Below, piece by piece: positions 38,029-58,896 of a stretch of 64,000 nt of DNA. This DNA is from an uncultured Bacteroidales bacterium. GTDB taxonomy: Bacteria; Bacteroidota; Bacteroidia; Bacteroidales; VadinHA17. Where the stretch lies: NCBI GenBank assembly GCA_963772705.1, contig CAVYYH010000011.1, positions 2,384-66,383 on the forward strand, given 5' to 3'. The position numbers and the translations under genes are program-made. The stretch's first letter is position 1; each line of letters opens with the position of its first letter. A model generated the notes under the pieces. That model saw only the letters and a program-made list of their open reading frames with translations, was not told the DNA's origin and ran no database searches.

Positions 38029-39185
38029 TTACGATTTCAGGATTTGCAGCCAGGTGGATAGCTGCTGTCGCGGTCTTCATACTGGCTGTTTCCGGCCGGC
38101 CGCTGTCAGCACAGGAGCTCTCTGCGGGGCTTACACATGAAATTGACAGCCTTTACCATGACTTTTCAGCAATGAATCATCTGCCCGGAGCCGCGGTTCT
38201 TGTCATGAAGGGTGACAGCATCACATATCTGAAGTGCTTCGGCCTTGCCGACATGGTGACCGGGGTGAAGATAACTGCGAATACTCTCTTCAACCTCGGC
38301 TCAATCTCAAAGACTTTCGTGGCCAACGGGATACTGATACTGCAGGAGGAAGGGAAACTGTCGGTTGATGACCCGGTGAGCAAATATTTTCCCGGGTTTA
38401 AAAGCAGGGAAATAGCTGACAGGGTAACGGTGATGCACCTGCTGACCCACACATCTGGATTGCCTGACAACAGACCGGTGAGCGAGAACAGGGAGTTTTT
38501 CATCACTGCAAAGGATTATGAGAACTGGGCCCCCGTGATGCAGGCAGAGAGCCTGGTTTTTGAACCCGGCTCGGGTTATGAGTATTCCAATCCTGCGTTC
38601 AACGGCCTGGCGCTGATAATAGAGCAGGTCAGCGGACAAAAGTGGCAGGATTTCATTGCTGAAAGGATTTTCAGGCCGGCAGGTATGGTTACAAGCACAA
38701 TTACTGACGGACCTCACCCCGAAACAGGCGTGGCACACGCATATGAGATGGCAGACGGAAAGTGGACAGAGTCTGACTACGGTGAGTTTCCTACTTTCGC
38801 AGCCGCTGGCAACGGAGGCGTCTGGAGCTCAGTTACTGAACTTGCAATGTATGAAAAGGCCATCCGGCATAATGCATTCCTGGGCAGAGAATTAACCGAT
38901 GAATCAAGATCAGTCTGTCGTCCTGAAAACTGGGCTGCCGATGAAGAACCGTTTATCGGTTACAGCTGGTTTATAGGTGAAGATCAGTTCCTGGATGAAA
39001 AGAATAATTTCAGCGTCAGGTTCATCTACCATACGGGTGATCAGGGTGGATTCAGGGCATTCTATGTCTCAATCCCTGAAAAGGATATCCTTTATATCGG
39101 CCTCTTTAACAGGCCGCCTGAGGACCTCAATAAATTAATCATCGGAGGGATCTCCCTTTTTGAAAAGAACAACTGGATTGAATAA
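38025..39185 (+). CDS. serine hydrolase (class C beta-lactamase/D-aminopeptidase-like fold)
   Basis: SxxK motif GSISKTF, YSNPAF. Signal peptide. The start overlaps the previous stop. Confidence 0.75.
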   Translation: MITISGFAARWIAAVAVFILAVSGRPLSAQELSAGLTHEIDSLYHDFSAMNHLPGAAVLVMKGDSITYLKCFGLADMVTGVKITANTLFNLGSISKTFVANGILILQEEGKLSVDDPVSKYFPGFKSREIADRVTVMHLLTHTSGLPDNRPVSENREFFITAKDYENWAPVMQAESLVFEPGSGYEYSNPAFNGLALIIEQVSGQKWQDFIAERIFRPAGMVTSTITDGPHPETGVAHAYEMADGKWTESDYGEFPTFAAAGNGGVWSSVTELAMYEKAIRHNAFLGRELTDESRSVCRPENWAADEEPFIGYSWFIGEDQFLDEKNNFSVRFIYHTGDQGGFRAFYVSIPEKDILYIGLFNRPPEDLNKLIIGGISLFEKNNWIE

Positions 39186-39207
39186 TTGTATCGCAGTAAC
39201 TAAGAAA

Positions 39208-41262: not shown

Positions 41263-41268
41263 AGACCT

Positions 41269-42615: not shown

Positions 42616-42623
42616 GAGTTCTA

Positions 42624-43454
42624 ATGAGACATTACCACCTGTTATTCCCGGTTCTTCTGGCATACTGTCTGCTCATGGTGCAGTCGTGTGAGGATTCTGA
42701 TCCCCGATCAGAAATTGACTGGGATAATCAGCGCATCGCCAGCGGTATAGTACTGAAATCGGCAGTGACCAATTACCTTGAATCATTTCAGGCAATTTAT
42801 GTTTTAAAGATAGACCCTGATAAAGCTGATTTCGAGTTTTGTGTGGGAGTGCCGGGCGGACGCGTATTGACCAGCACCTTTGCTGACAGTTGCGGAGCCG
42901 TGGCGGCAATAAACGGGACATTTTTCAATATGGCCGAGGGGTACAATACGCATTATATAAGCATCAAAGACAGTGTAATATCAACAACGGCAGAAGGTGA
43001 GTTTAATTTCCGGGCAACAGGGGTCTTCTCTGCAACGGGTGAGGAGGTAGAAATTACCTACTGGACCAGGGACAAGGAAAACAAAGGTGCAGCGGAGGAT
43101 GATTATGCAATGGTCAGCGGGCCTCTGCTGATAGCCGATAATATAGACGTTACCCTGGCAGACATACCATTCAACACAGCGAGGCACCCGCGATCTTTCG
43201 TTGCCATAACGGCAAAAGGAGATATCCTGCTCGTTGCCGTTGACGGACGACAGCCCGGATATGCAGAGGGGATGAACCTTACTGAACTGAGGGAGTTGGC
43301 GCACATGCTCGATTGTGTTGATGCCCTCAATCTTGACGGTGGCGGGTCAACAACGCTCTTTGTCAGCGGTCAGGGGCAGACAGGTGTGGTGAACAAACCT
43401 TCGGGCGGGGTGGAGAGAGCTGTGGCAAGCATGTTATACGTGATGAAAAATTAA
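42624..43454 (+). CDS. phosphodiester glycosidase (DUF2233/NAGPA-like) lipoprotein
   Basis: Lipobox VQSC, AINGTFF, LNLDGGGSTTL. ATG 42624 is preferred over the ORF-track start 42537. Confidence 0.75.
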   Translation: MRHYHLLFPVLLAYCLLMVQSCEDSDPRSEIDWDNQRIASGIVLKSAVTNYLESFQAIYVLKIDPDKADFEFCVGVPGGRVLTSTFADSCGAVAAINGTFFNMAEGYNTHYISIKDSVISTTAEGEFNFRATGVFSATGEEVEITYWTRDKENKGAAEDDYAMVSGPLLIADNIDVTLADIPFNTARHPRSFVAITAKGDILLVAVDGRQPGYAEGMNLTELRELAHMLDCVDALNLDGGGSTTLFVSGQGQTGVVNKPSGGVERAVASMLYVMKN

Positions 43455-45687: not shown

Positions 45688-47109
45688 ATGAAAATACTCC
45701 TTACCGGTGCAACAGGTTATATCGCAAAACGGCTTCTTCCAGTACTGCTGGCTGAAGGTCATGAGGTAGTATGTTGTGTCAGGGACAGAAAGAGGTTTGA
45801 CACAACCAGGTTCGCCTCCGGCAATCTCAAAGTCATAGAGGCGAATTTCCTCAATAAAGACTCATTGGCCAATATACCTGGCGATATTGATGCAGCCTAT
45901 TATCTCATTCATTCAATGTCAGCCTCAACGGGCGACTTTGCTGCAATGGAGCGGACCTCCGCTCTCAATTTCAGGGACAGAATGAATGAAACGGGGATCA
46001 GGCAGGTGATATACCTCAGCGGAATTGTAAACAATGATTCCCTGTCAAAACACCTCTCTTCCCGCAAGACGGTCGAGGATGTTTTGTCATCAGGATCATA
46101 CAATCTGACAGTGCTCAGGGCAGGTATCATTCTCGGCTCAGGCAGTGCTTCGTTTGAGATAATCCGTGATCTGGTGGAGAAACTGCCGGTGATGATTACG
46201 CCAAAGTGGCTAAACACCAGGTCACAGCCCCTAGCAGTACAGAATGTAATTGAATTTCTGAACGGAGTACTGTTGAAGGAAGATACATACGGTAAAAGCT
46301 TCGATATAGGCGGTCCGGATATTTTGACTTACAAAGAGATGCTTCTCAGGTTTGCTAAAGTCAGGAAGCTGAAGCGCAGTATCTTCGTAGTGCCTGTAAT
46401 GACTCCCAGGTTGTCATCCTACTGGCTCTATTTTGTAACCTCAACCTCCTACAAGCTGGCGGTCAACCTCGTTGACAGCATGAAGGTAGAGGTGATCTGC
46501 CGCGAGAATGACCTGCATAAAAGGCTGGGCATCAATCTCATCGGTTTTGAAGATTCAATACGGATGGCATTTGACAGGATTGAGCAGCAGGAAGTATTCT
46601 CAAGCTGGACCGACGCACTCTCCGGCCCCCTGCTTGAAAAAGGTATCTCTGACCTCATCAGGGTTCCTGTTTACGGTTGCCTGTTCGATAAAAGAGTAAG
46701 GCCGATAAGCGATGAGGAAGCAGTACTCAATAAGATATGGGCAATAGGGGGAAAAAACGGATGGTATCATGCCAACTGGCTATGGGGGATGCGCGGTTTC
46801 CTCGATAAACTTTCAGGAGGTGTCGGACTTCGAAGGGGAAGAAGAAACAGCAGCGAAATCTCGCCGGGCGACGCACTCGACTTCTGGAGAGTGATCTATG
46901 CCGACAGGAAAGAGAAGAGGCTTCTGCTTTACGCTGAGATGAAACTCCCCGGAGAAGCATGGCTCGAATTCCGGATCGAAGACAACATGCTTTACCAGAC
47001 TGCAACATTCAGGCCACTGGGTTTATGGGGAAGAGTGTACTGGTATTCTATCGTTCCGCTTCATGCAATTGTCTTCGGAGGAATGATAAAGAAACTGTCA
47101 GAGGGATGA
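45688..47109 (+). CDS. NAD(P)-binding SDR-like domain fused to a DUF2867-like domain
   Basis: MKILLTGATGYIA Rossmann start. The C-terminal third has the DFWRV...LLYAEMKLPGEAWLEF pattern. Confidence 0.65.
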   Translation: MKILLTGATGYIAKRLLPVLLAEGHEVVCCVRDRKRFDTTRFASGNLKVIEANFLNKDSLANIPGDIDAAYYLIHSMSASTGDFAAMERTSALNFRDRMNETGIRQVIYLSGIVNNDSLSKHLSSRKTVEDVLSSGSYNLTVLRAGIILGSGSASFEIIRDLVEKLPVMITPKWLNTRSQPLAVQNVIEFLNGVLLKEDTYGKSFDIGGPDILTYKEMLLRFAKVRKLKRSIFVVPVMTPRLSSYWLYFVTSTSYKLAVNLVDSMKVEVICRENDLHKRLGINLIGFEDSIRMAFDRIEQQEVFSSWTDALSGPLLEKGISDLIRVPVYGCLFDKRVRPISDEEAVLNKIWAIGGKNGWYHANWLWGMRGFLDKLSGGVGLRRGRRNSSEISPGDALDFWRVIYADRKEKRLLLYAEMKLPGEAWLEFRIEDNMLYQTATFRPLGLWGRVYWYSIVPLHAIVFGGMIKKLSEG

Positions 47110-47223
47110 CAGGTCTCAAAAGAATAGTTATTTTTGATTTATTGATGAATAATTGATTTAACCCCTGATCTGAAGATAAAGACAACTTAAGCAAAGGGAA
47201 ATGGTTTAGCCACTGTCAGGACA

Positions 47224-49551
47224 ATGAAGAAACAGCAACTGATAAAGCGGTTAAGAGCAGGGCTCAAATCAGACGAGACAGGGAATAAGGCTAATTCCCT
47301 GATTTTTCTACACAGATACGGTTTTAACATCCCTCTCACCTTCCTTGTGACCATCAGGGCGCATGAAAGGTATCTTAAGGAAGGATCTGCAGTGCTTGAT
47401 GAGCTCCGCAGGGAAGTGCTTGAACTGCCTGATAAACTCTATGCGGTCAGGTCCTCTACCACTGCTGAGGATTCAAAGGAGTTCAGTTTTGCCGGTCAGT
47501 TTCAGACTCTCATGAATGTGCGGGGAACGGAGAATATCCTTGCCGCAGTTCGCACAGTATGGGAGTCAGCTTCACATCTTAATGACAACGAGTATCTCAG
47601 AAGGACAGGCATCACAGCCATTAAATGCGGCGTTATCATCCAGGAGATGATCGAGTCACAACTGGCAGGGGTCAGCTTCAGCCGCAATCCGGTAACAAAC
47701 CAGAATGAGACAGTGATCGAAGCCCTCGAGGGTCTTGGGGAAGATCTTGTTCAGAAAGGGATTACCCCCCTGCGATGGAGGATAAGAAAGGAGGAGGTTA
47801 TTGAAGGTGACAGGGGCCATCGCTTCTACGCAGTGATAAAGAAGGTGGCAGCCGATACGTTAAAGCTAAGGCGGTATTACGGGGAGCACGCCGATATTGA
47901 ATGGGCATGGGACGGGAAACATCTTTACTATCTTCAGCTCAGGCAGATAACCGGAAGAAAGGAGCTTAATATCTACTCCAATAAGATGGCCAAGGAGATG
48001 CTGCCTGGCCAGGTCAAGCCTCTTATATGGTCAGTGAACATCCCCATGGTCAACGGAACATGGATAAAGATTCTTTCTGAAATAACAGGCCCGCTGAGTG
48101 TTAAGCCTGAGGAGCTGGCAAAACCGTTCTATTACCAGACTTATTTCAACATTGCGGCGCTGGGGAGGATATTCAGTGAATTCGGAATGTCAACAGACGC
48201 TCTTGAGCAGATGATGCTCAGCACTGATAATAAAAAACCTTCAGTAAAACCCGGCCTTAAAACACTCAGGCATTCATTCAGAATTATCAGGTTCATCATT
48301 GACAAAATGAGGTTCGAAAAGAAGCTCATCTCAGAATACAACGACCTGAAAGAAAGATTCACCGCGATTGAGGCTGAACTGAGGAACGGTTTTTCCAGAC
48401 AGTCATTCGGCAAATACTACTCAATCCTTTTTTCTGAAGGCCAGCGTATGGCATATCTCAATATCATGGCCCCTATCCTCATGACCCTTAACCACAAGAG
48501 ACTGAGAAAAAGGCTCGCCAAAAAGGGGCTCGAGTATGACAATCTTGATTTCCGTCGCGATTTTCCGCAGCTCGATGACTACACCCCGATGCCGGCAATC
48601 ATGAGGATCAAAAATGCCATTGAAAGCCTTCCCGAAGGGCTGAGAGAACAGTGCACTTCACTGCAGCGACTCAGGTCTGTTCCGGAAGCAGCCTCAATGG
48701 CCGGAGAAATTGACAGGTTCATGAAAGACTTCGGTCATCTCAGTGAGAGCGGCAACGACTTTTCATTTCCGAAATGGGAGGAAAACCCGGAGCAGGTTTT
48801 CAATATGATAATGAATTCAGCCAATCATGAGCCAAGGACAGAACTCTACAGTCCTGATGACTTGAGACAAAAGGGCATTAAGCTCAGCCGGTCACTGCGC
48901 AAAACCTATCTTAAGGCTGGCAGATTCAAGCTCTACCGCGAACAGATCAGCTCTTTATACATATTTGGTTACGGCCTTTTCCGGAGGCTGTTCCTGAGCC
49001 TCGGACGAGAGTTCGCAGCCGCAGGCGTCATTGAGTCTGAAAATGACATCTTCTATCTCCACAAGGAAGAGACAGATCTGATTCTGAATGACCCGGATAA
49101 TCCGGGCAATAGCCGTTTCAGGGAGCTTATACTGCAACGGAAGAAAGAGATGGAGGAGACAAAGGATATCGTTCTTCCGCCTGTTATTTACGGTGATGAG
49201 GCTCCTCAGCCTGATACCCGCAGGGTCGTAAATCATCCGGGTATTGGTACGTCATCCGGATCTTATACAGGCAGGACCAGGGTCGTAAGGAATACAGATG
49301 ATTTTGCAGCAGTTGAAAAAGGAGACATCGTATTGATACCTTTTTCTGACGTAAGCTGGACACCCATACTCGTCAAGGCCGGAGCCATAGTATCTGAAAC
49401 CGGGGGTATGCTGTCACACAGCTCTATCATTGCTCGTGAAATGGGTATCCCCGCCCTTGTCTCAGTTGCAAATGCCTGTGCGCTGGGCAGCGGCCTCAAG
49501 GTCACGGTAAACGGTTCAAACGGACTTTTAACAGTTCATGATTATGAGTGA
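47224..49551 (+). CDS. PEP-utilising enzyme family kinase (PpsA/rifampicin-phosphotransferase-like: ATP-grasp N-domain plus His swivel domain, no PEP/pyruvate TIM barrel)
   Basis: AVRSSTTAEDSKEFSFAGQFQTLMNV (PPDK_N type) and C-terminal GGMLSHSSIIAREMGIPA (phospho-His mobile domain). Confidence 0.75.
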   Translation: MKKQQLIKRLRAGLKSDETGNKANSLIFLHRYGFNIPLTFLVTIRAHERYLKEGSAVLDELRREVLELPDKLYAVRSSTTAEDSKEFSFAGQFQTLMNVRGTENILAAVRTVWESASHLNDNEYLRRTGITAIKCGVIIQEMIESQLAGVSFSRNPVTNQNETVIEALEGLGEDLVQKGITPLRWRIRKEEVIEGDRGHRFYAVIKKVAADTLKLRRYYGEHADIEWAWDGKHLYYLQLRQITGRKELNIYSNKMAKEMLPGQVKPLIWSVNIPMVNGTWIKILSEITGPLSVKPEELAKPFYYQTYFNIAALGRIFSEFGMSTDALEQMMLSTDNKKPSVKPGLKTLRHSFRIIRFIIDKMRFEKKLISEYNDLKERFTAIEAELRNGFSRQSFGKYYSILFSEGQRMAYLNIMAPILMTLNHKRLRKRLAKKGLEYDNLDFRRDFPQLDDYTPMPAIMRIKNAIESLPEGLREQCTSLQRLRSVPEAASMAGEIDRFMKDFGHLSESGNDFSFPKWEENPEQVFNMIMNSANHEPRTELYSPDDLRQKGIKLSRSLRKTYLKAGRFKLYREQISSLYIFGYGLFRRLFLSLGREFAAAGVIESENDIFYLHKEETDLILNDPDNPGNSRFRELILQRKKEMEETKDIVLPPVIYGDEAPQPDTRRVVNHPGIGTSSGSYTGRTRVVRNTDDFAAVEKGDIVLIPFSDVSWTPILVKAGAIVSETGGMLSHSSIIAREMGIPALVSVANACALGSGLKVTVNGSNGLLTVHDYE

Positions 49552-50329
49552 AGTAATAACATACCTGGCTGACCATCCATGGTTTACTGCAATACTCTGC
49601 AGTGTCACGGCTTATCTTATCGGATCAGTCTCTTTTGCCCGTATTGTCTATTTTCTGGCAACAAAGAAGAGTCAGATTGAACCTTTCTCGGAGCCGGTAC
49701 CTCATTCTGATGAGACCTTCGAATCAGACCTGGTAAGTGCCACCCTGGTGACTAAAAAGATCGGGGCAAGGTATGGAGTCATCACCTCTGTTGCCGATAT
49801 GCTGAAAGTTGCCGTACCAACTCTGCTGGTCAAACTTGCATTCCCTGGTGAACTCTGGTTCCTCCTGGTAGCACTCTTCGGTGTGGCAGGCCATAATTTC
49901 CCGGTTTATTACAGGTTTGTCGGCGGCCGCGGGGAATCATCCATACTCGGAATTATTCTCGTAATCAACTGGTTCGGCCTAATCGTTGCCAACCTCGCTG
50001 CGACACTTCTCGGATTCATTGCAGGAAGCGTACTGGTAATACGTTGGGGGGGATATGTGATACTCATCTTCTGGCTGTGGTACTGGTTCGACGATTGGCG
50101 ATATGCCCTCTTTATGCTATTGATCAATTGCCTCTTCTGGATCTCAATGCGAAAGGATCTGGCCCGCTTCATCGAGCTGAAAAAGAAGAGAGGCCTGGCC
50201 TTTACCGAGGAGGAGGTATCGGAATTTATCCTGATGGGAAAAAGCATGGGCAGAGCACTTGACAGGTACAGCCTGTATGCAATTATTAAAAGAATCGCAG
50301 ACAAAAAAGGAGAAGGACCAAAAGGGTGA
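49538..50329 (+). CDS. PlsY-like acyl-phosphate:glycerol-3-phosphate acyltransferase family membrane protein
   Basis: GSVSFARIV and GHNFPVYYRFVGGRG motifs. The start overlaps the upstream stop. Confidence 0.7.
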   Translation: MIMSEVITYLADHPWFTAILCSVTAYLIGSVSFARIVYFLATKKSQIEPFSEPVPHSDETFESDLVSATLVTKKIGARYGVITSVADMLKVAVPTLLVKLAFPGELWFLLVALFGVAGHNFPVYYRFVGGRGESSILGIILVINWFGLIVANLAATLLGFIAGSVLVIRWGGYVILIFWLWYWFDDWRYALFMLLINCLFWISMRKDLARFIELKKKRGLAFTEEEVSEFILMGKSMGRALDRYSLYAIIKRIADKKGEGPKG

Positions 50330-51480
50330 GATCCGGAATTTTATACCATTGCATAGCATTGATCATGTGCCTTTCGCAGGCAGTCAGTGGTCAGAATTTG
50401 ACTCTTGGTTTTGACAACCAGGTAAGCACCTGGGTCGGGTCAAATTATACCGAACAGTTATACACCCAGGCGGGAATAAGATACATTCCCACCCTCAGTC
50501 CTTCATGGAAAACAGGCAGGAACAGCAAATTCGATGCTGAATTATCTATAAATACATATGGAAATCTGTTATTCACAGATGCTGAATTAGATACAGCAAC
50601 ATATGACTTCAAGGCATACCGTCTGTGGATGAGATATTCGACATCTAATCTTGAGATAAGAGCAGGGCTGCAAAAAATTAACTTCGGTTCCTCTAATATT
50701 CTCCGGCCGCTGATGTGGTTTGACAATATCGACTTCAGAGATCCCCTTCAGCTGACCAACGGTGTCTACGCCCTCCTCGGGCGATACTATTTCAATAACA
50801 ACGCGAACATCTGGCTATGGACTCTTTACGGGAACAAGGAGACCAAAGGATGGGAAGTGGTACCCTCCGTATGGGACATTCCGGAGTATGGCGGCCGGCT
50901 TCAGCTGCCTGTGCCCCTCGGAGAGATTGCTTTCAGCTATCACCACCGCGATGCTGATTATTCTGAGCTTTATGCCGGCAATCCCCTGGTTACTGACACC
51001 CGCTTTACGGAACAGATGTTTGCCCTTGACGGCAAATGGGACGTTGGACCGGGAATATGGTTTGAATACTCCGGAAAGCTAAACGACAAGGATAATCTGC
51101 TTGTTACCAGGTGGGAGACCTATTACAGCCTTGGAATAGATTATACTTTCCCGCTGGGAAAGGGGCTGAATGCCGGTTCGGAATTCTTCCACTATTCCAA
51201 CAATGCTGAAGATGAGCAGATGAAGACGACCCGTAATTTTTCAACACTCTCTCTCAGTTACCCTCTGTTCCTTTCCCACAGTATTTCAGGACTTGTATAC
51301 TATAACTGGGATACGGAAGAGTGGTACCGTTTTCTGAACCTCCAGCTGAAATATGATTATATAAGTCTATATTTAATGGCATTTTGGAATCCTGATAAGC
51401 TTACAATGTTTGTTGGCAGCGATGACAGCAACAGTTTTGCAGGGAAAGGATTCCAGCTCATGGTGGTACTCGATATCTAA
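50326..51480 (+). CDS. putative outer-membrane beta-barrel protein
   Basis: Signal peptide (AVSGQ). Alternating amphipathic strands rich in Y/W/G. Overlaps the upstream stop by 4 nt. Confidence 0.45.
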   Translation: MRSGILYHCIALIMCLSQAVSGQNLTLGFDNQVSTWVGSNYTEQLYTQAGIRYIPTLSPSWKTGRNSKFDAELSINTYGNLLFTDAELDTATYDFKAYRLWMRYSTSNLEIRAGLQKINFGSSNILRPLMWFDNIDFRDPLQLTNGVYALLGRYYFNNNANIWLWTLYGNKETKGWEVVPSVWDIPEYGGRLQLPVPLGEIAFSYHHRDADYSELYAGNPLVTDTRFTEQMFALDGKWDVGPGIWFEYSGKLNDKDNLLVTRWETYYSLGIDYTFPLGKGLNAGSEFFHYSNNAEDEQMKTTRNFSTLSLSYPLFLSHSISGLVYYNWDTEEWYRFLNLQLKYDYISLYLMAFWNPDKLTMFVGSDDSNSFAGKGFQLMVVLDI

Positions 51481-51500
51481 GCAATTAATTTCTCTGTCAG

Positions 51501-52202
51501 ATGGACAACGAAACGATAATAACAATTGAAGGTCTCAAAAAACACTTTCCCATGGGAAGCGGCAGGTTCACCGCTCTGAACGGCATTGATCTCACAGTCG
51601 GAAAGGGTGAGTTTGCAGGCATTATAGGGCCGAGCGGGTCAGGCAAGACAACGCTTCTCAATATTATCGGTACTCTCGATGTCCCTTCCGAGGGGAGGGC
51701 TGTCATACTCGGGCAGTCTGTCGCCAGTCTCACACCGGCAGCCTCAGCGGCACTGCGCAAGTCAAAGCTGGGTTTTATTTTCCAGAGCTATAATCTCTTC
51801 CAGGTGCACACCGTTTTTGAGAATGTTGAGTTTCCTCTGCTGCTTCAGGGGATAGAAACCGCCAAACGCAGACAGATGGTCCTTGATGCCCTGGAATGGG
51901 TAGGCCTTACTGACAAGATTAAATCACGACCGGCACAGCTCTCAGGCGGCGAGAGCCAGCGTGTCGCGATAGCGCGTGCCATGGTGAAGAGACCAGCCAT
52001 CGTTCTTGCTGATGAGCCTACGGCAAACCTTGATGCTGCAAACTCTCACAACATACTGCAGACAATGGAAAAGCTGAACCGTGAACTGCAGACAACATTC
52101 CTCTTTGCCACACATGATGAGAAAGTAATAAGCTATGTCAGAAGAAAAATTATTCTTCTTGACGGGAAAGTAGCCAGGGATGAGATCATTGAAAAAAACT
52201 AA
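51501..52202 (+). CDS. ABC transporter ATP-binding protein (LolD/MacB type)
   Basis: Walker [10 protein letters not shown], signature LSGGESQRV, Walker B IVLADEPT. Confidence 0.9.
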
Positions 52203-52217
52203 CCGGAGGAAGCGCAT

Positions 52218-53390
52218 ATGATGGCATTCAATCTGGCATTCAGAAACCTCCTGGGAGCAGGATTACGAACATGGCTCAACGTCATTGTTCTCTCATTCTC
52301 ATTTGTCATAATCATATGGACCAAAGGGCTGCTGGAAGGATGGGACCGTCAGGCAAGGAATGATATGATCAAGTGGGAGATAGGCGGCGGTCAGTACTGG
52401 CATGCCAGCTATGACCCCTATGACCCATTTACTTTATCTGACAGCCACGGCGCCATTCCCGGTGAACTTTCGGCAATTGCCAATGACACCTCCGTAGTTC
52501 CGGTTCTCATAGCACAGGGGACCATCTTTCCCGCCGGAAGGATGCAGTCAGTCCTTATCAAGGGTATACCCCCTGAACAGAAGCTCCTGGCCCTGCCGAC
52601 AGAAAAGCTGGTATCAGTTGATAATGATATACCGGCCATAATCGGTAGTACCATGGCTGAGAACACAAAGCTCGGCGAGGGTGATTATGTGACACTGCGC
52701 TGGCGTGACAGGAATGGCACATTCGATGCCACAGAGATAAGGATAGCGGGGCTCTTTGAGACCACGGTGCCGACTGTCGACGTGGGGCAGGTGTGGATAC
52801 CTTTGGATAATCTCCGCGAGATGATGCTTCTCCCCGGTGAGGCAACATTAATTATCGCCGGAGAGACGTCAGGGGCCGTACCTGTGAATGACGAGTGGGT
52901 ATTCAAGGATCACAGGACGCTGCTGGCAGACATAGAGCAGATCATTAAGGCAAAAAGTTCGATGGGGATGATAATATGGGCAATACTGCTCATGCTTGCG
53001 ATGCTTGCCGTGTTCGATACACAGGTGTTCTCAATTTTCAGGAGACAGAAGGAGATCGGAACCTATGTGGCACTCGGCATGACCCGGGGAGAGGTTGTTA
53101 AGCTGTTTACAATCGAGGGAGCAATGAATTCAGTCCTGGCAGCAATCGTAGGTGCTCTCTACGGCATCCCGCTGCTTACATTGCAGGCCGTAAACGGCAT
53201 TGCCATACCTGTCAAAAGCAGCGACTACGGCATTGCCATGGCTGAGAGGCTATACCCTGTGTACAGTTTAGGCCTTATTGCAGGAACAGTATTCATAGTG
53301 ATGCTGGTAACAACCATCGTCAGCTACTGGCCTTCGCGCAAAATTGCCAGGCTTAATCCCACAGATGCTCTAAGGGGGAGGATGCAATGA
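52218..53390 (+). CDS. ABC permease, FtsX/MacB-like
   Basis: N-terminal TM helix, large periplasmic domain, and a C-terminal 3-TM FtsX-type block. Confidence 0.75.
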   Translation: MMAFNLAFRNLLGAGLRTWLNVIVLSFSFVIIIWTKGLLEGWDRQARNDMIKWEIGGGQYWHASYDPYDPFTLSDSHGAIPGELSAIANDTSVVPVLIAQGTIFPAGRMQSVLIKGIPPEQKLLALPTEKLVSVDNDIPAIIGSTMAENTKLGEGDYVTLRWRDRNGTFDATEIRIAGLFETTVPTVDVGQVWIPLDNLREMMLLPGEATLIIAGETSGAVPVNDEWVFKDHRTLLADIEQIIKAKSSMGMIIWAILLMLAMLAVFDTQVFSIFRRQKEIGTYVALGMTRGEVVKLFTIEGAMNSVLAAIVGALYGIPLLTLQAVNGIAIPVKSSDYGIAMAERLYPVYSLGLIAGTVFIVMLVTTIVSYWPSRKIARLNPTDALRGRMQ

Positions 53391-54661
53391 TCAGATTTAT
53401 ATTCAAGGGCCTCATAAGGGACCGAAATCGCAGCCTGATACCTTTCATCGTAACAGCTACAGGGGTAATGCTCACAGTGATCTTCCATGCATGGATGACA
53501 GGCGTTATTGGCAACAGCATTGAGTTTAATGCAAGGTTTGCAGCAGGCCATGTAAAAATTATGACCAGCGCTTACGCAGAGAATGCAGGTCAGTCGCCGA
53601 ATGATCTTGCAATACTCGGCACTGATACCCTTACAGGAATCATCTCTGCTGAGATACCGGAGATGGAGTTTGTGGAGCGCATATATTTCGGAGGACTGAT
53701 CGACGTTCCCGACAGTTCAGGAGAGACAAGGGCACAGGGGCCGGCATTCGGCATCGGCATTGACATGCTTTCCGGACGTAACGATGAGACAGAGCGAATG
53801 AATATCACCTCATCACTCAAGAGCGGACGCCTGCCCCTGAACAGGAATGAAGCAATCCTCAGCAGCGTTTTTGCAGATAAACTCGAAATCATTCCGGGTG
53901 ATACCTTCACACTGGTAGGATCAAGCATGTACGGAGAGCTTACGATGCACAATTTCGTACTCTGCGGGACAGTGGAATTCGGGACAACAGCTCTTGACAA
54001 AGGAACCATCATAGCTGATATAAAGGATGTGAGAGAGGCACTGAATATGTATGACGCCACTGGTGAGATACTCGGTTTTTTAAGAACAGGAACCTATGAC
54101 GATGAACAGGCAACTATGATCGTCAATCGATTCAATGAAAAATATTTTTCGGCGGAGGATGAATTCTCGCTGCTGATGAAGAGCCTCGCCCAGCAGAATA
54201 ACATGGGTTTCCTGGTTGAGTATTCAGGCAAGCTTAAGGCGATACTCGTTTCAGTATTCATTATGGCAATGTCGCTGATTTTATGGAATGCAGGACTGCT
54301 GGGAGGATTAAGAAGATACGGCGAGTTTGGTATGAGACTTGCAATAGGTGAAGAGAAAGGACATGTCTATAGAACAATGCTGATGGAATCGCTGATCATA
54401 GGTTTCTTCGGATCTCTGGCAGGTGTCGCCGCAGGGATGGTCATAGCACTCTATCTTCAGGACCATGGCATCGATCTTGGAATAATGATGAAGAATGCTT
54501 CTATCATGATGCCACATGTGTTCAGGGCCCGGATCACTCCGGAAACATGGTATATTGGCTTTGTTCCGGGCTTCCTGTCAACACAGCTGGGGGCGCTTCT
54601 TGCCGGAATCGGAATTTACAGACGCCAGACTGCACAACTCTTTAAAGAACTTGAAGCATGA
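53387..54661 (+). CDS. ABC permease, FtsX/MacB-like (second)
   Basis: Same architecture as 52218-53390. 4-nt overlaps on both sides. Confidence 0.75.
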   Translation: MIRFIFKGLIRDRNRSLIPFIVTATGVMLTVIFHAWMTGVIGNSIEFNARFAAGHVKIMTSAYAENAGQSPNDLAILGTDTLTGIISAEIPEMEFVERIYFGGLIDVPDSSGETRAQGPAFGIGIDMLSGRNDETERMNITSSLKSGRLPLNRNEAILSSVFADKLEIIPGDTFTLVGSSMYGELTMHNFVLCGTVEFGTTALDKGTIIADIKDVREALNMYDATGEILGFLRTGTYDDEQATMIVNRFNEKYFSAEDEFSLLMKSLAQQNNMGFLVEYSGKLKAILVSVFIMAMSLILWNAGLLGGLRRYGEFGMRLAIGEEKGHVYRTMLMESLIIGFFGSLAGVAAGMVIALYLQDHGIDLGIMMKNASIMMPHVFRARITPETWYIGFVPGFLSTQLGALLAGIGIYRRQTAQLFKELEA

Positions 54662-55398
54662 AAAGATTCATCACAATAGTGATTTTAATTACATGTTACT
54701 GCGGCCTTAATGCCCAGTACCCGGACGCCAGGAAAATTATCGAAGGTATTGATCAGAATATGTCATCTGAGAACAGGGTCTTCTCATCTTCAATGATAAT
54801 CCATGGAAGACGGTCAACACATACTGTAAAGCTCAAGACCTGGACTGCAGGTGAGGATAAGTCTTTCACCGAATATCTCTTTCCGGTGCGTGAGCAGGGA
54901 ACGAAGATGCTCAAGCTTGAAGACCAGCTCTGGATATACTCCCCGTCAACAGACCGCATTATTCAGATTGCCGGACATATGCTCCGCCAGTCGGTAATGG
55001 GTTCAGACCTCTCCTATGAAGACCTCATGGAGGACAGCAAACTGACCGACCAGTACAATGCCAGGATTACAGGAACAGAGACTGTCGACGGGCACCAGTG
55101 CTGGGTAATAGAACTGACTGCCTTCGTGACGGAAATAGCATATCACGGAAAGAAGTTATGGGTTGACCAGAAGCGAAATATCCCCCTCAGGGAAGAGATG
55201 TACGCCAAAAGCGGGACCTTGCTAAAACGAACTGAGTTATCTGATATTCAGCGTATTAATGAGCGATGGTATCCGAAAAAGATTGTCTTCAGGGATATGC
55301 TCAAGGATGGTGAGGGAACTGAATTCATTATTGAGGATATCGAATTCAATGTTCCGATCGAAGATTATATCTTTTCAAAGGCGAGTCTTAAAAAGTAG
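54658..55398 (+). CDS. LolA-like outer-membrane lipoprotein-sorting protein
   Basis: Signal peptide. MGSDLSYEDLMED and WYPKKIVF patterns typical of the LolA_like family. Confidence 0.7.
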   Translation: MKRFITIVILITCYCGLNAQYPDARKIIEGIDQNMSSENRVFSSSMIIHGRRSTHTVKLKTWTAGEDKSFTEYLFPVREQGTKMLKLEDQLWIYSPSTDRIIQIAGHMLRQSVMGSDLSYEDLMEDSKLTDQYNARITGTETVDGHQCWVIELTAFVTEIAYHGKKLWVDQKRNIPLREEMYAKSGTLLKRTELSDIQRINERWYPKKIVFRDMLKDGEGTEFIIEDIEFNVPIEDYIFSKASLKK

Positions 55399-55499
55399 GA
55401 GCACACTTATCACCTGCACTGACAAGAGGATGCGATCTGAGGTACTCAACTGAAATATCAGATCTTATCGCGGAATCAAACTCCAGACCCGCGTCGTAA

Positions 55500-56279
55500 T
55501 CACCCTTCAGAATAAAAATTGAGCCAGGGCAGCAGGTACCTGTTGAGAGTCAGATGCTGCTCTTCCTCACTAATCCCGTCATTGCAGAACGCCATTGTCT
55601 CACCGAAATTGCACAGTGAATTATGCGATCCCATCTGGCAATGTGTTGCACCTTTGATAAGAAGGTAGGTCTTGTTGACAGATGCTGAAAAATTATAGAT
55701 CGGAAGCTGATGTTTTTCAGGCGGCGTAATGCAGTCATTGCCTCCGGCAACGATAAGGGTAGGTGCTTTAACTGAAGAGGCAGACTGAATGGCAGACGGA
55801 GAGGTGTTCAAGGGTGCCAGTGAAACAATGGCGGCTATATCAACCTGCATGTTGGCTGCAGCAAACACGGCCCCCCCTCCCATGCTGTGACCCATAAGAC
55901 ACCTTGAAGCATCAGTTATACCATGAAGCGGAGAGGAAGCATCGGCAGCCAGGCTGTCAATCGCACCAAGAACAAAGGCCAGGTCTTCTGAATACTCTTC
56001 ATGTGACGGAAAAAGTCCGGATGCACTTCCGGGAAAGACAAGAATATAGCCGGCCGGCACAAGCGCCTCCTGAATATTGAGGTATGCCGATGTAGGTAAC
56101 ATGTAACCATGTGCAAAACAGATCACCGGGAATTTGACTTTTGATGATACACCCTCTGCACCACCATCTCCAGGCAGAGCCTGAGGATAAAATATATCTG
56201 CGGGAATATTCCTTCTACCACTCAGACCATCACTGAATACTGTATTTATGTGCCCGATAGCGTAATCCTGCGCAAACAT
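55500..56279 (-). CDS. alpha/beta hydrolase (dienelactone hydrolase/chlorophyllase/cutinase-like)
   Basis: GHSMGGG nucleophile elbow. An in-frame signal-like stretch (LQLVITALLICSG) lies upstream without an in-frame ATG, so the 5' end is uncertain. Confidence 0.65.
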   Translation of the reverse strand: MFAQDYAIGHINTVFSDGLSGRRNIPADIFYPQALPGDGGAEGVSSKVKFPVICFAHGYMLPTSAYLNIQEALVPAGYILVFPGSASGLFPSHEEYSEDLAFVLGAIDSLAADASSPLHGITDASRCLMGHSMGGGAVFAAANMQVDIAAIVSLAPLNTSPSAIQSASSVKAPTLIVAGGNDCITPPEKHQLPIYNFSASVNKTYLLIKGATHCQMGSHNSLCNFGETMAFCNDGISEEEQHLTLNRYLLPWLNFYSEG

Positions 56280-56390
56280 CCCGGAACAGATGAGCAGGGC
56301 AGTTATGACTAGTTGGAGTTCTCATTCTGCAAATTTAAGTGTATCATATTTCAAAATGATGGTTACATTTGACTGAATTTGCTGATTTCT

Positions 56391-57365
56391 ATGAAAATTG
56401 CCGTTACCGGTGCCTCAGGCCATGTGGGCACAAACCTGTGCAGGATGCTGATTGGCGAGGGGTTTAGTGTTAAAGCCCTGATTCATAGCAGCACGCTGGG
56501 TCTGGAGGATCTCGACATTGAAATAGTCAGAGGTGACATCAACAGTGAATCCGATCTGAGAAATCTTTGCAGAGGTTGTGAAACTGTCTTTCATCTTGCA
56601 GCATGCATCAGTATCCGCCGGAAGGATCAGGAATGCATCAGGACCAATGCTGAAAGCTGTGTCACCCTTATCAGTGCGGCCAGGGCTGAGGGAGTAAAAA
56701 GGATCATCCACTTCAGCTCGATACATGCCTTCAGTCATGAGCCGATGGACCGGGTGCTCGATGAAACGCGCGAGCTCGCCCTCGGCAGCACGGCGTCATA
56801 TGACAGGTCAAAGGCTCTCGGCCAGAAGATAATGCTCGATGCCTCATCACCTGAACTGGAAGTGGTTGTTTTAAACCCGACAGCCATAATAGGCCCCTGC
56901 GATCACAAGCCTTCACTGATCGGCAATGCCGTCATCAGATTCTACAAGGGGCAGAACCCCACCCTTATCCCCGGTGGATACAACTGGGTGGATGTGAGAG
57001 ATATATGCAGGGCCGCGGTCAATGCTATAACCCGGGGAACTCCCGGTCAGTGCTATCTGCTGGGTGGAAGCTGGCAGAGCCTGCCAACACTGGCTGACAC
57101 CATTGCACAGCTGGGGGGCCACAAGACACCTGCCATAACACTGCCGATGTGGCTCGCCGGAATCGGGGCCGTATTTCTCAACCTGCATGCCACATTCACA
57201 GGCTCAACTCCACTCTATACCGCTATGTCACTTGAAGCACTCAAATACGGTCATAAGAACATATCAAGCCTCAAGGCAGCAAAAGAGCTCGGTTTTGTCT
57301 CCCGTCCCTTTATTGAGACTATCACTGACACCATAAGCTGGTTCAAACAAAAAAGCTACATCTGA
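56391..57365 (+). CDS. NAD-dependent epimerase/dehydratase (extended SDR; 3-beta-HSD/dihydroflavonol-reductase-like)
   Basis: MKIAVTGASGHVG Rossmann start. YDRSK catalytic Y-x3-K. Confidence 0.75.
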   Translation: MKIAVTGASGHVGTNLCRMLIGEGFSVKALIHSSTLGLEDLDIEIVRGDINSESDLRNLCRGCETVFHLAACISIRRKDQECIRTNAESCVTLISAARAEGVKRIIHFSSIHAFSHEPMDRVLDETRELALGSTASYDRSKALGQKIMLDASSPELEVVVLNPTAIIGPCDHKPSLIGNAVIRFYKGQNPTLIPGGYNWVDVRDICRAAVNAITRGTPGQCYLLGGSWQSLPTLADTIAQLGGHKTPAITLPMWLAGIGAVFLNLHATFTGSTPLYTAMSLEALKYGHKNISSLKAAKELGFVSRPFIETITDTISWFKQKSYI

Positions 57366-58123
57366 TGGACAAAACAACTTTCACCCTCCTGGTGTGGCTC
57401 TGGACCGCCATAGGCGTCATAGTCTTCCTCCTGTTGCTGTTTGTAACGGCACCCTACGGCAGACACTCCTCTAAGAAATGGGGCGTCACCATACCTGACC
57501 GGCTGGGATGGTTCATGATGGAAGTGCCGGCACTGCTTATATTTATATGGCTGATAATCACCGGTGATGCTCAGAAGACAGCTGTGGTATGGATCATAGC
57601 CTTTCTCTATGCGTTTCACTATTTCAACCGCTCAGTAATATATCCTATGCGTATCAGGACCAGAGGGAAAGAGATGCCCCTGGTCATTGCGCTGATGGCA
57701 ATATTCTTCAACTTCGTCAACGCAGGATTCCTGGGGTATTATACCGGAACCCTGCAGACACAGTACGGCAATGAATGGTTCACCGACCCACGCTTCGCAG
57801 CCGGACTGGCACTTTTCATTACCGGTATGATAATCAATGTCTCCTCAGACGAGAAGCTGATACATCTCAGGAAAAAAAGCACCAGCGGCTACCAGATTCC
57901 CCGCGGGGGACTGTTTGAGAAGATCTCCTGTCCGAACTTCTTCGGAGAGATAGTGGAATGGGCAGGGTTTGCAATTATCTGCTGGTCGCTGCCGGCCCTC
58001 TCGTTCTTTGTATGGACCTTCTGTAACCTGGTACCCCGGGCTCTTGCCCATCACAAATGGTACAGGAGCAATTTCAGTGATTATCCTCCCGGCAGAAAGG
58101 CTGTATTTCCCTTTATTTTGTAA
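57365..58123 (+). CDS. steroid 5-alpha-reductase (3-oxo-5-alpha-steroid 4-dehydrogenase) family membrane protein
   Basis: Six TM helices with C-terminal PRGGLFEKISCPNFFGEIVEWAGFA and HHKWY motifs. TGATG overlap with the upstream gene. Confidence 0.7.
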   Translation: MDKTTFTLLVWLWTAIGVIVFLLLLFVTAPYGRHSSKKWGVTIPDRLGWFMMEVPALLIFIWLIITGDAQKTAVVWIIAFLYAFHYFNRSVIYPMRIRTRGKEMPLVIALMAIFFNFVNAGFLGYYTGTLQTQYGNEWFTDPRFAAGLALFITGMIINVSSDEKLIHLRKKSTSGYQIPRGGLFEKISCPNFFGEIVEWAGFAIICWSLPALSFFVWTFCNLVPRALAHHKWYRSNFSDYPPGRKAVFPFIL

Positions 58124-58146
58124 CTTAACGTCTCATATCATCTGAA

Positions 58147-58896
58147 GTGGATTCTACTTATCTCAGTTATCGGCTAAGATTCGTCTGGCTTACGGTTTTT
58201 GCCGTAGCCATGGGTTTCCTTGAGGCTATTGTGGTAGTATATCTCAGAATGATATACTACCCCGAAGGATTCGATTTTCCGCTTGCCCTTATGCCCCCGG
58301 AGGTGCTGTCAGTTGAGTGGGTGAGGGAGATTGCAACCCTTGTCATGCTAGCCGCTGTTGGCATTATTGCAGGCAGAAATAATCTCCAGAGGCTCTTCTA
58401 CGCTCTCTTTGCCTTTGGGGTATGGGACATCATCTATTACGTGGCACTCAAGATCTTCCTCGCATGGCCTGCTTCTCTCCTTACCTGGGACCTTTTGTTC
58501 CTGATACCTCTCCCCTGGCTGGGGCCTGTGCTGGCACCCGTGATCTGCTCAGTCACAATGATGATCATGGCAGTCATCATTATCGGCAGACAGGAAAGAG
58601 GTTATACTGTGAGGCCCGCTCCTGCCGACTGGATATTGATCTATGGAGGCGCCGCAGTAATACTTTATACGTTCCTTATTGACTACTCAATGCTTATAAT
58701 TAACAGCGGCATACTGTCATCAGAGGGCACCCCGGCCGACGCAGAGAAACTCCTGTCAATAATAAACCAGTATATACCTGGCAGTTATAAATGGGTTCTC
58801 TTTGTTGCAGGGGAGCTGCTGATAATTGCCGGGACTGTCAGAATCTTCATTAAATCCAGGAAAAGAAAACTGCCGGTCGGGGAACCGGCAGTTTAG
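58147..58896 (+). CDS. polytopic membrane protein of unknown function
   Basis: 249 aa with about 7 hydrophobic helices. GTG start. Confidence 0.5.
   Translation: MDSTYLSYRLRFVWLTVFAVAMGFLEAIVVVYLRMIYYPEGFDFPLALMPPEVLSVEWVREIATLVMLAAVGIIAGRNNLQRLFYALFAFGVWDIIYYVALKIFLAWPASLLTWDLLFLIPLPWLGPVLAPVICSVTMMIMAVIIIGRQERGYTVRPAPADWILIYGGAAVILYTFLIDYSMLIINSGILSSEGTPADAEKLLSIINQYIPGSYKWVLFVAGELLIIAGTVRIFIKSRKRKLPVGEPAV
58867..58894 (-). terminator. intrinsic terminator for the minus-strand gene, embedded in the 3' end of the plus-strand gene
   Basis: Perfect 10-bp stem aaactgccgg / ccggcagttt with an 8-nt loop. On the minus strand it is followed by tcttttcc. Confidence 0.55.

Follow-up and report, generated by a model that had tools for sequence, protein, structure and literature searches.

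A conserved gene cluster of uncultured Bacteroidales joins an RPH-type dikinase and a PlsY-like membrane protein to a MacB/Lol-type export machine, and probably makes and exports a hydrophobic compound

What compound would be made, and where would it be moved, by a gene cluster that joins a dikinase to a PlsY-like membrane protein and to an export machine? The question is raised by positions 47224-55398 of a 64,000-nucleotide stretch of DNA, hereafter the window, from an uncultured Bacteroidales bacterium (GenBank assembly GCA_963772705.1, contig CAVYYH010000011.1, forward-strand positions 2,384 to 66,383). A preliminary description, made from the sequence alone, had proposed that eight plus-strand genes in this region form an operon for lipid synthesis and export. 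The open reading frames (ORFs) there number seven, and encode, in order, a kinase, a PlsY-like protein, an outer-membrane barrel, an ABC ATPase, two FtsX-type permeases and a LolA-like carrier (genes 1 to 7). The overlaps that had been quoted are exact (14 nt at 49538/49551, and 4 nt at each of 50326/50329, 53387/53390 and 54658/54661), the two remaining intergenic gaps measure 20 nt (51480/51501) and 15 nt (52202/52218), and the seven genes are one operon. We conclude that this operon represents a system found in several bacterial lineages and composed of five recurring roles, namely a dikinase, a PlsY-derived transferase with seven transmembrane (TM) helices, a ferrochelatase-fold protein, an alpha/beta-hydrolase, and a MacB/LolCDE-type extractor with an envelope-crossing partner. 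The cluster probably makes and exports a hydrophobic compound, and on balance we favor a general scheme of activation, transfer and export.

The pairing of the kinase with the PlsY-like protein was strongly conserved. Genes of the cluster share 95-100% protein identity with those of an uncultured Bacteroidales metagenome-assembled genome (MAG; locus L001, loci being designated by L-numbers), and metagenomes from wetlands, freshwater sediments and soils contain the cluster DNA. When one genome per species was scanned, the PlsY-like gene was recovered at 43 loci, of which 42 carry a Bacteroidales or Bacteroidota label, and in these loci the order kinase, PlsY-like, barrel, ATPase, permease, permease, LolA-like and convergent alpha/beta-hydrolase was nearly constant. 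The same gene order was found in ~45 Bacteroidales species-level MAGs and metagenome contigs, an arrangement that is far beyond chance, and a metagenome scan added 80 further loci, down to 30% identity. Synteny was counted over loci with at least 3 kb on both flanks, and a kinase was scored when it lay within 4 kb of the PlsY-like gene. By this measure the kinase adjoins the PlsY-like gene in 56 of 61 loci (33/35 of the Bacteroidales type and 23/26 others). Two independent natural fusions were likewise found, each in the order PlsY-like - PPDK_N - swivel (L049:10669-13665, 998 amino acids [aa]; L128, 1038 aa). Thus, the co-occurrence on which the preliminary description had staked its hypothesis was borne out by the survey, and the kinase and the PlsY-like protein are a distinct, moderately sized family pair, for which these comparisons provide very strong evidence of functional coupling.

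The kinase has the architecture originally ascribed to it. Searches with Pfam profiles identified an ATP-grasp PPDK_N domain (133 bits) and a phospho-histidine PEP-utilizers swivel domain (68 bits), and found no match in the kinase to the phosphoenolpyruvate (PEP)/pyruvate TIM-barrel domain. The protein consists of the ATP-grasp part, a central substrate domain and the C-terminal phospho-His domain. Its best NCBIfam matches were PEP-synthase subfamilies, PigC, RedH and the rifampicin phosphotransferase RPH, all far under their cut-offs: the score was 193 bits for the RPH equivalog NF041857 (cut-off 999), 204 bits for the PigC equivalog (cut-off 1300) and 165 bits for the PEP synthase TIGR01418 (cut-off 740), and the three-part architecture of PEP synthase and PPDK is absent. 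The closest relatives by sequence in the PDB were 5FBS/5HV1 (E 8e-38), which we take to be Listeria rifampicin phosphotransferase. Alignment to these entries showed that the catalytic His motif 'GGMLSHSSIIARE' is retained, giving the kinase the RPH architecture together with the conserved catalytic His; moreover, its homologues match Pfam Rph_4th. The kinase therefore resembles RPH and PigC/RedH in combining ATP-grasp, a substrate domain and a C-terminal swivel His without a TIM barrel, but differs from them in scoring far below their equivalogs and in being always partnered with a membrane PlsY-like protein. In PigC, the phosphate acts as a leaving group for a subsequent condensation, and by analogy the same logic may apply to the kinase described here.

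The assignment of gene 2 as PlsY-like also holds, as its product matches PF02660 (G3P_acyltransf) with 65.6 bits against a cut-off of 24.1. The score for the PlsY equivalog TIGR00023 was 57.4 bits, below the cut-off of 137.2, and the canonical motif GSGNxGATN was present in 0/103 members of the PlsY-like family. The protein is a PlsY-derived 7-TM protein with a conserved 13-aa insertion (EPVPH..F) and a conserved C-terminal extension of ~50 aa. We compared it with Aquifex PlsY (5XJ5), to which a profile search against the PDB aligns only residues ~11-137. The acyl-phosphate site of the Aquifex enzyme comprises His92, the GGKG 'phosphate hole' of Loop3, and Ala40/Thr41, which bind the carbonyl; Ser35, Lys104 and Arg45 clamp the phosphate, Asn37 stabilises the oxyanion, and the glycerol 3-phosphate (G3P) pocket and oxyanion residues together are Ser35, Asn37, Arg45, Lys104, Asn180, Ser142 and His177 (PMC5700162). 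The acyl-phosphate site is recognizable in gene 2: His92 corresponds to H119, which is invariant in the family, Loop3 GGKG corresponds to GGRG (G129-G130-R131-G132), which is likewise invariant, and Ala40/Thr41 correspond to A68/T69, of which A68 is invariant while the T69 position holds Thr, Ser or Asn. The G3P-pocket and oxyanion set is altered. Ser35 is kept as S63, Lys104 is replaced by R131, Asn37 by L65 (variable in other clades), and Arg45 by K73 (with an Arg one position earlier in other clades). Since the acyl-phosphate site is kept and the G3P-specific and oxyanion residues are lost, gene 2 is, as judged from these residues, not of the housekeeping PlsY type. Instead, its sequence fits an enzyme that would bind an acyl-phosphate-like head group, with a different acceptor or somewhat different chemistry.

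An exhaustive profile search placed the size of this PlsY-like family at 149 representative clusters (50% identity) at E<=1e-30 and 438 at E<=1e-10. At E<=1e-3 the search returned 5156 clusters, those reached at this threshold presumably being the canonical PlsY family. The PlsY-like family extends over Bacteroidales, Chloroflexota and other sediment lineages, and a second clade is large in Chloroflexota/Anaerolineales (573 matches). Chloroflexota-type loci often contain two tandem PlsY-like paralogues, or a free and a kinase-fused copy (L044:7242-8741, L045:7243-8744, L049, L128), and the second copy in such loci is far more divergent, with 27-32% identity to the window protein. The 64-kb window contains no other PlsY-like ORF, and no canonical GSGNxGATN-type PlsY was present in the window or in any locus examined (+-10 kb per related genome).

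These findings bear on the simplest alternative, namely that the genes are coincidental neighbours, with gene 2 a housekeeping PlsY, the kinase a PpsA-like enzyme unrelated to it, and genes 3-7 another version of the lipoprotein (Lol) pathway. That the exporter cassette is found alone in other phyla would agree with such a view, as would the fact that a second plsY was not demonstrated in the same genome within the +-10 kb per locus examined. We nevertheless regard it as close to refuted, given synteny over ~45 species and down to 30% identity, the existence of fusion proteins, the failure of gene 2 to reach the PlsY equivalog cut-off and its lack of the canonical motif, the small size of the family at E<=1e-30 compared with the thousands of PlsY-like clusters at E<=1e-3, and LolD and LolCE scores below their cut-offs. 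A housekeeping PlsY beside a chance Lol-like neighbour was rejected in view of the synteny and the fusions.

How might the two proteins act together? In the FakA/FakB or PlsX routes to PlsY, a soluble enzyme supplies a phosphate-activated intermediate to a PF02660 enzyme that has seven TM helices and works at the cytoplasmic leaflet; the pair resembles these routes in that respect and in the retention of the acyl-phosphate site residues of PlsY by gene 2. It differs from them in that the window kinase is a PEP-synthase/RPH-type dikinase rather than FakA or PlsX, in the changed G3P/oxyanion residues, insertion, C-terminal extension and sub-threshold equivalog score of gene 2, and in that the PlsY-like enzyme is paired or fused with its kinase and tied to an exporter. 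Because the active site of PlsY faces the cytoplasmic leaflet and the fusions join the PlsY-like C-terminus to the kinase, the two proteins would be expected to meet at the cytoplasmic face. The fusion order, which sets the transferase domain beside the kinase, likewise suits a different reading, according to which the pair is a split lipid kinase: the PlsY-like protein would be a membrane acceptor site that replaces the TIM barrel, and the phospho-His would phosphorylate a lipid or polyprenol hydroxyl held in the 'phosphate hole' before export. The kinase indeed lacks the third, acceptor-binding domain of the PpsA type, gene 2 has lost Asn37 while keeping the phosphate-binding loop and the His, and hydroxyls are phosphorylated by known RPH-family enzymes. 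However, the kinase has a large central domain of its own that matches the RPH substrate domain (Rph_4th), and the carbonyl-binding A68/T69 pair is invariant or nearly so, which would be needless in a simple phosphate monoester site. We therefore consider a split lipid kinase quite unlikely.

The assignments of genes 3-7 were all upheld, those of the ABC ATPase, the two FtsX permeases and the LolA-like protein by profile searches and that of the barrel by AlphaFold2. The barrel had no significant family match in profile searches. Its AlphaFold2 model, built with 17 homologues (predicted local distance difference test [pLDDT] 81.5), consists of a signal peptide and an 18-strand beta-barrel, and its top PDB match in Foldseek was AlgE (TMq 0.58), followed by general porins. 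A signal peptide, a closed antiparallel barrel and a beta-signal are thus all present, the C-terminus reading ...VxN[FYH] in homologues and ...VVLDI in the window copy. Residues 112-146 (window 50659-50763; RAGLQKINFGS..LRPLMWFD..D.RDPLQLT.GV) are near-invariant from Bacteroidales to Acidobacteriota-type homologues and are the least confident part of the model; they are probably a functional in-pore loop or plug. The likeness to AlgE is one of architecture, as an 18-strand outer-membrane beta-barrel and best structural match, whereas identity is 13% and no alginate genes are present here. Gene 4 matched ABC_tran with 117 bits, and its best NCBIfam match was LolD (225.8 bits, below the cut-off of 307.75). 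Permeases A and B matched FtsX with 50.7 and 49.3 bits, respectively, and the LolCE equivalog with 43.2 and 21.8 bits (cut-off 362.45); permease A has 4 TM helices and a large periplasmic domain. Gene 7 matched the LolA_like/TP_0789-like family PF17131 with 202 bits (cut-off 30). Its signal peptide ends in 'AQ' and its orthologues have no conserved lipobox Cys, as in a type I signal peptide, so the protein should be a soluble periplasmic carrier. Its PDB relatives (9TP6, 3BUU, 4Z48 and 3BK5) are all uncharacterised proteins of the LolA superfamily. Profile searches found neither a membrane-fusion adaptor nor a TolC-type duct among the window cluster genes.

This export module has partial counterparts among known machines. 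Like LolCDE-LolA(-LolB), it has a single ATPase gene, a pair of non-identical FtsX-type permeases and a periplasmic LolA-superfamily protein that is soluble, but here the LolD and LolCE cut-offs are not reached, the carrier is TP_0789-like (PF17131) instead of LolA proper, the outer-membrane partner is an 18-strand barrel instead of the lipoprotein LolB, and the cassette is joined to small-molecule enzymes. FtsX-fold permeases and a LolD/MacB-like ATPase are likewise found in MacAB-TolC, HrtBA and DevBCA, which are MacB-type (type VII) ABC exporters; unlike these, the window system uses a soluble carrier and an AlgE-like barrel, without a membrane-fusion protein or TolC. Known cargos of MacB-type machines include heme (HrtBA), protoporphyrin (MacAB-TolC) and glycolipids. 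The closest described analogue of the export half is Borrelia BBJ23-BBJ29, a computationally predicted export system in which a MacB-like ABC transporter is combined with a LolA-like protein and a beta-barrel of the outer membrane (PMC13078400). The analogy is partial, in that the Borrelia barrel belongs to the Omp85 family, the transporter is homodimeric, and kinase, PlsY-like, chelatase-like and hydrolase genes are absent (PMC13078400).

The export genes were linked to the pair in a modular fashion. MacB-type ABC and FtsX genes occur in 34/35 Bacteroidales loci and in 13/26 others, 9 of the latter with a membrane-fusion protein. Kinase/PlsY-like pairs of other lineages are accompanied by non-orthologous MacB-type pumps with YknX/HlyD-type adaptors, and Chloroflexota-type pumps carry MacB_PCD domains in addition to such an adaptor. 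A point against a fixed link is that the five-gene cassette (barrel, ATPase, two permeases and TP_0789-like protein) also occurs with neither a kinase nor a PlsY-like gene nearby, for example in L130, in L131 (Candidatus Saccharicenans) and on a JGI contig; barrels of these stand-alone cassettes, which are found in other phyla, share ~40% identity with the window barrel. Because the cassette is found alone, we view it as a self-contained module that was joined to the kinase/PlsY-like core in Bacteroidales, and because the pair also recruits different MacB-type pumps, the export link is functional but modular. The preliminary description had named independent occurrence of the ABC/LolA-like part, with coincidental adjacency, as grounds for abandoning its hypothesis; the part does occur independently, but the adjacency is not coincidental, as indicated by the 34/35 Bacteroidales loci and the substitute pumps of other lineages.

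An exporter of this kind next to a relative of rifampicin phosphotransferases could also be read as a detoxification or resistance island, in which phosphorylation by the kinase would inactivate a hydrophobic xenobiotic or antibiotic for expulsion by the MacB-type pump, with accessory functions for the remaining genes. Pumps of the MacB type and adaptors of the YknX type are a classic means of resistance, 5FBS/5HV1, the closest solved kinase relatives, are taken here as rifampicin phosphotransferases, and a TetR regulator stands beside the exporter cassette in L130. We judge this reading to be decidedly unlikely, however, since the kinase scores far under the RPH equivalog (193 vs 999 bits), and since neither the obligatory pairing or fusion with the PlsY-like protein nor the chelatase-fold and hydrolase partners would have a role in drug inactivation.

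These last two partners, a ferrochelatase-fold protein and a secreted alpha/beta-hydrolase, recur with the core and had been overlooked in the preliminary description. The ferrochelatase-fold protein of the window (c6 type) scored 26.6 bits against Pfam Ferrochelatase (26.6-27.0 bits across the searches made), for which the cut-off is 27, and matched PDB profiles with E 0.1. Its AlphaFold2 model had a mean pLDDT of 67, with the core above 85. The barrel and the chelatase-like protein were run as one combined query, which returned few sequences (10 and 19), and this scarcity of homologues accounts for the only moderate confidence of the chelatase model. In Foldseek, the top 39 PDB matches of the model were all ferrochelatases or CpfC (TMt 0.6-0.69, E 1e-9), and His291, in 'LSKHGNP', aligns with the active-site His of the ferrochelatase 'SAHSLP' motif (catalytic or metal-side His183). 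Thus, c6 combines the class II chelatase fold with the metal/porphyrin-site histidine. Cys112, Cys145, Cys172, Cys215 and Cys424 are also conserved and might hold an Fe-S cluster. A second type (c8), of ~410 aa, with a class II chelatase domain and, at its N-terminus, three TM helices, is found in Chloroflexota-type loci, where it lies beside or between the kinase and the PlsY-like gene, and its profile matches CbiX/CfbA with E 1e-4. Both types resemble ferrochelatase/CpfC in part: c6 in its fold, in the kept His and, by inspection only, in an 'AENTDLM' stretch like the acidic helix, and c8 in its similarity to CbiX/CfbA. They are unlike these enzymes in the sequence score of c6, which is at or below thresholds, in its insertion, in the N-terminal TM helices of c8, and in their context, which is a kinase/PlsY-like/exporter cluster instead of heme synthesis.

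The position of the chelatase-fold gene is also conserved. The soluble c6 (~448 aa) lies directly 5' of the kinase in most Bacteroidales, with orthologues immediately upstream of the kinase in L004, L008, L025, L026, L037, L038, L040 and L050. In four Bacteroidales loci c8 replaces c6 at the same position, and the two are mutually exclusive. A chelatase-fold gene is present in 30/47 Bacteroidales-type loci, and 12 of the 17 without one end <5 kb upstream, so that ~30 of the 35 Bacteroidales loci with enough sequence to judge contain it; it was also found in 24 other loci. A direct comparison of c6 with c8 by hhalign gave a probability of 3% (E 0.013) and aligned only an HG(H/Q)P motif, so that their relation rests on fold, Pfam matches and mutually exclusive position instead of direct profile similarity. 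To our knowledge, tetrapyrroles and metals are the only ligands of the class II chelatase fold. In non-Bacteroidales loci (L048 = GCA_002347155.1, L044, L047) the core was seen beside a TonB-dependent receptor with a FecCD/Peripla_BP_2 importer, URO-D, or amine-oxidase-family (CgoX/CrtI-like) genes, neighbours that are loosely consistent with a tetrapyrrole or metal theme and are not systematic.

The hydrolase resembles PETase, chlorophyllase and dienelactone hydrolase in Pfam searches and is secreted in Bacteroidales, where orthologues of ~310 aa carry a signal peptide and the gene is convergent, downstream of the LolA-like gene, in most loci. In other lineages the hydrolase is of a PGAP1/palmitoyl-thioesterase-like type and is located between the PlsY-like and chelatase-like genes. 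Relative to the 311-aa orthologue of L001, the window copy contains frameshifts in the signal-peptide region (~56270-56325) and in an A-run at ~55513. A related-population RNA contig lacks the extra base at 55513, and the frameshifts represent either assembly errors or recent inactivation. Compact operons in which all roles are present in shuffled order were found in L079, L073, L077, L114, L061 and L087, and in the first five of these the chelatase-fold gene is embedded inside the operon; the order in L079, for example, is adaptor, permease, kinase, PlsY-like, hydrolase, chelatase-like, ATPase. Taken together, the recurrence of the same roles through non-orthologous or divergent versions (c6 or c8, PETase- or PGAP1-like hydrolase, LolA-like carrier with barrel or membrane-fusion protein) provides the strongest argument that the five roles belong to one system.

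RNA evidence came from four freshwater-sediment metatranscriptome assemblies, which contained contigs with 90-99% identity to the window. These contigs cover the chelatase-like, kinase, PlsY-like, barrel, ATPase, both permease and hydrolase genes and the downstream SDR and reductase genes, and span the junctions at 49538/49551, 50326 (PlsY-like/barrel) and 52202/52218 (ATPase/permease). One lies over 41156-41457 at the chelatase-like gene and another over 53816-54641 in permease B. A further contig starts at 47157, 21 nt downstream of a TAnnTTTG sequence, which we take to be the Bacteroidetes-type -7 consensus. It is the sole match in the 114-nt gap before the kinase, compared with 0.34 per kb on the plus strand. 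The RNA contigs are consistent with a polycistronic transcript.

We propose that the kinase would phosphorylate a hydrophobic carboxylate from ATP, through its phospho-His, to yield an acyl-phosphate. At the cytoplasmic leaflet, a PlsY-like enzyme docked to this kinase would move the acyl group to an acceptor other than G3P. The ABC machine would then pull the product out of the inner membrane, the LolA-like carrier would ferry it over the periplasm to or through the barrel, and the secreted esterase would edit or recycle it. Either the activated carboxylate or the acceptor might be a tetrapyrrole of the porphyrin or heme type, instead of or besides a fatty acid. This full statement, comprising a phosphorylated hydrophobic carboxylate, PlsY-like transfer, export and possibly a tetrapyrrole, is tentative and somewhat short of an even chance, as we infer its chemistry, transport direction and cargo. 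The synthesis-and-export outline of the preliminary description gained from co-conservation, the fusions, the acyl-phosphate site and the recurrent MacB/Lol link, while its 'lipid' cargo was an assumption and its chemistry was inferred.

The nature of the cargo separates two versions of this scheme. In an ordinary fatty-acyl lipid pathway, the kinase would join FakAB and PlsX as a third kind of fatty-acid kinase and would make fatty acyl-phosphate, the PlsY-like enzyme would acylate a head group other than G3P, the lipid would travel to the outer membrane, and the chelatase-fold protein would not be directly involved. The PlsY fold and acyl-phosphate site are kept, part of the phosphate clamp (S63, K73/R72, R131) survives, the carrier of the Lol-like exporter has a hydrophobic cavity, the hydrolases resemble lipases or deacylases, and a Bacteroidales subset has lipid-type neighbours (SDR-DUF2867, an ICMT/PEMT-like methyltransferase, an HpnA/SdmB-like SDR and a steroid 5-alpha-reductase family protein). 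It leaves the ferrochelatase-fold partner of most loci unexplained, though, and faces the same objections concerning carboxylate phosphorylation and loss of Asn37, and we consider it rather unlikely. Tetrapyrroles bear propionate carboxylates. A purely fatty-acyl scheme offers no role to the chelatase-fold partner. For this reason, and in view of these propionates and of the MacB-type pumps that export heme and protoporphyrin, we consider a substrate or acceptor of the tetrapyrrole type at least as likely as a plain lipid. Its most specific form would be a tetrapyrrole-conjugate pathway, in which the chelatase-fold protein sets the metal state of a porphyrin, heme or chlorin, the dikinase phosphorylates one of its propionates to an acyl-phosphate, the PlsY-like enzyme esterifies or amidates the tetrapyrrole onto a membrane acceptor, the exporter moves the conjugate to the outer membrane or out of the cell, and the secreted chlorophyllase/PETase-like esterase releases or recycles it; spelled out in such detail, the proposal is unlikely.

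Several observations weigh against the proposed scheme of activation, transfer and export. The oxygens phosphorylated by known RPH-family enzymes belong to hydroxyl or enol groups and not to carboxylates, and we know of no precedent for carboxylate phosphorylation in the RPH-type kinase family. The C-terminal half of gene 2, including the equivalents of Ser142, His177 and Asn180, is not alignable to PlsY, and the loss of Asn37 is a reason to doubt that acyl transfer of the PlsY type is still performed by the PlsY-like enzyme; in the Aquifex protein, N37A reduced activity by 80% and N37D abolished nearly all of it. MacB-type machines draw their substrates from the outer leaflet or the periplasm, and a flipping step is therefore missing from the scheme. 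As for the chelatase-fold partner, the c6 model contains a low-confidence insertion of ~125 residues, the window copy lies 4.6 kb upstream of the kinase with five lineage-specific genes between, and the gene is absent from the long loci L005, L018, L031, L046, L068, L103 and L123. Finally, the RNA contigs are short, derive from relatives and not from this strain, and could reflect DNA carry-over.

The preliminary description had not recognized this combination as a described pathway, and a full-text literature search agreed, finding no account of the kinase/PlsY-like pairing or of the cluster, with Borrelia BBJ23-29 as only a partial analogue. All parts are of known folds; it is their combination that is undescribed and widely conserved, and we see in it acyl-phosphate-dependent transfer and Lol/MacB-type export in variant form. 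PlsY is viewed as serving a single purpose, the synthesis of phospholipids, and the RPH-type dikinases known so far act mainly in the inactivation of antibiotics and the ligation of pigments. Here, members of both groups are obligate partners, fused in some genomes, and their repeated union with chelatase-fold, esterase and MacB/Lol exporter genes points to an envelope pathway, encountered mainly in wetland, sediment and soil metagenomes. If the proposed chemistry were true, it would represent a new acyl-phosphate route, would show the PlsY fold with a new acceptor specificity, and would give Lol-like transport a new cargo, with a small molecule or lipid passing by way of a LolA-like carrier to an AlgE-like barrel. 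If the tetrapyrrole-conjugate proposal were true, it would add a new reaction class for the kinase family, a third acyl-phosphate route and a new function of the PlsY fold, and anaerobic sediment bacteria would have a route devoted to exporting or detoxifying porphyrins. With a core of just two genes, or one where they are fused, the pathway is directly testable.

The features of the window that belong to the system or border on it are summarized in Table 1.

Table 1. Coordinates of the cluster genes and associated features in the window
Feature	Position	Strand	Remarks
RPH/PigC-type dikinase (gene 1)	47224-49551	+	775 aa
PlsY-like protein (gene 2)	49538-50329	+	263 aa
Outer-membrane barrel (gene 3)	50326-51480	+	384 aa, GTG start
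LolD/MacB-type ABC ATPase (gene 4)	51501-52202	+	233 aa
FtsX-type permease A (gene 5)	52218-53390	+	390 aa
FtsX-type permease B (gene 6)	53387-54661	+	424 aa
LolA-like carrier (gene 7)	54658-55398	+	246 aa
Ferrochelatase-fold protein, c6 type	41269-42615	+	448 aa, soluble
NAD-binding SDR fused to DUF2867	45688-47109	+	Pfam; between chelatase-like gene and kinase
Candidate -7 element TAnnTTTG (TATTTTTG)	47129-47136	+	motif match, weak evidence
Secreted alpha/beta-hydrolase	55395-56325	-	Pfam; two frameshifts, intact ORF 55500-56279

The SDR-DUF2867 gene stands upstream of the kinase in 22 loci, 21 of them of the Bacteroidales type, and is a lineage-specific neighbour outside the universal core. 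Core membership was likewise rejected for the nitroreductase-FeS, redoxin, ICMT-like, HpnA/SdmB-like and steroid-reductase-like neighbours; as these genes and SDR-DUF2867 were restricted to Bacteroidales subsets (3-22 loci), we treated them as lineage-specific additions. Downstream of the cluster, at 56379-58896 on the plus strand, are genes for an HpnA/SdmB-like SDR (hopanoid/sterol-associated families, below cut-offs), a membrane protein of the steroid 5-alpha-reductase family and an unknown 249-aa protein. This trio is co-conserved in ~12 Bacteroidales loci and could be a module for the reduction of a triterpenoid, sterol or polyprenol. At 31921-34056 on the plus strand lies a gene for an RND transporter that is HAE3/HpnN-like and has a sterol-sensing-domain match, preceded by one for a membrane protein with a weak Acyl_transf_3 match (30637-34056 for both), which gives a further hint of unusual lipid traffic near the cluster. 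A run of plus-strand genes at 35186-41262, encoding an amidohydrolase, an S58 (DmpA-type) peptidase, a beta-lactamase-fold protein and a 700-aa protein with no family match, stops 6 nt short of the ferrochelatase-like gene. On the other side of that gene, a plus-strand ORF with a NAGPA domain (42537-43454) is listed with a TTG start 79 nt inside it; the true start is probably further downstream.

Scans of the window identified no tRNAs, sigma-70 promoter and intrinsic-terminator scans of it were uninformative, and a prophage or mobile island was rejected because supporting features were not seen. The G+C content is 35-43% over positions 1-26000 and 46-54% from ~36 kb on, a marked compositional shift within the contig. 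Elsewhere, the MAG MFD00032.bin.3.335 carries three copies of the whole cluster on three contigs (L012, L023 and L042), with 39-71% PlsY-like identity to the window, reflecting either real paralogy or a mixed bin.

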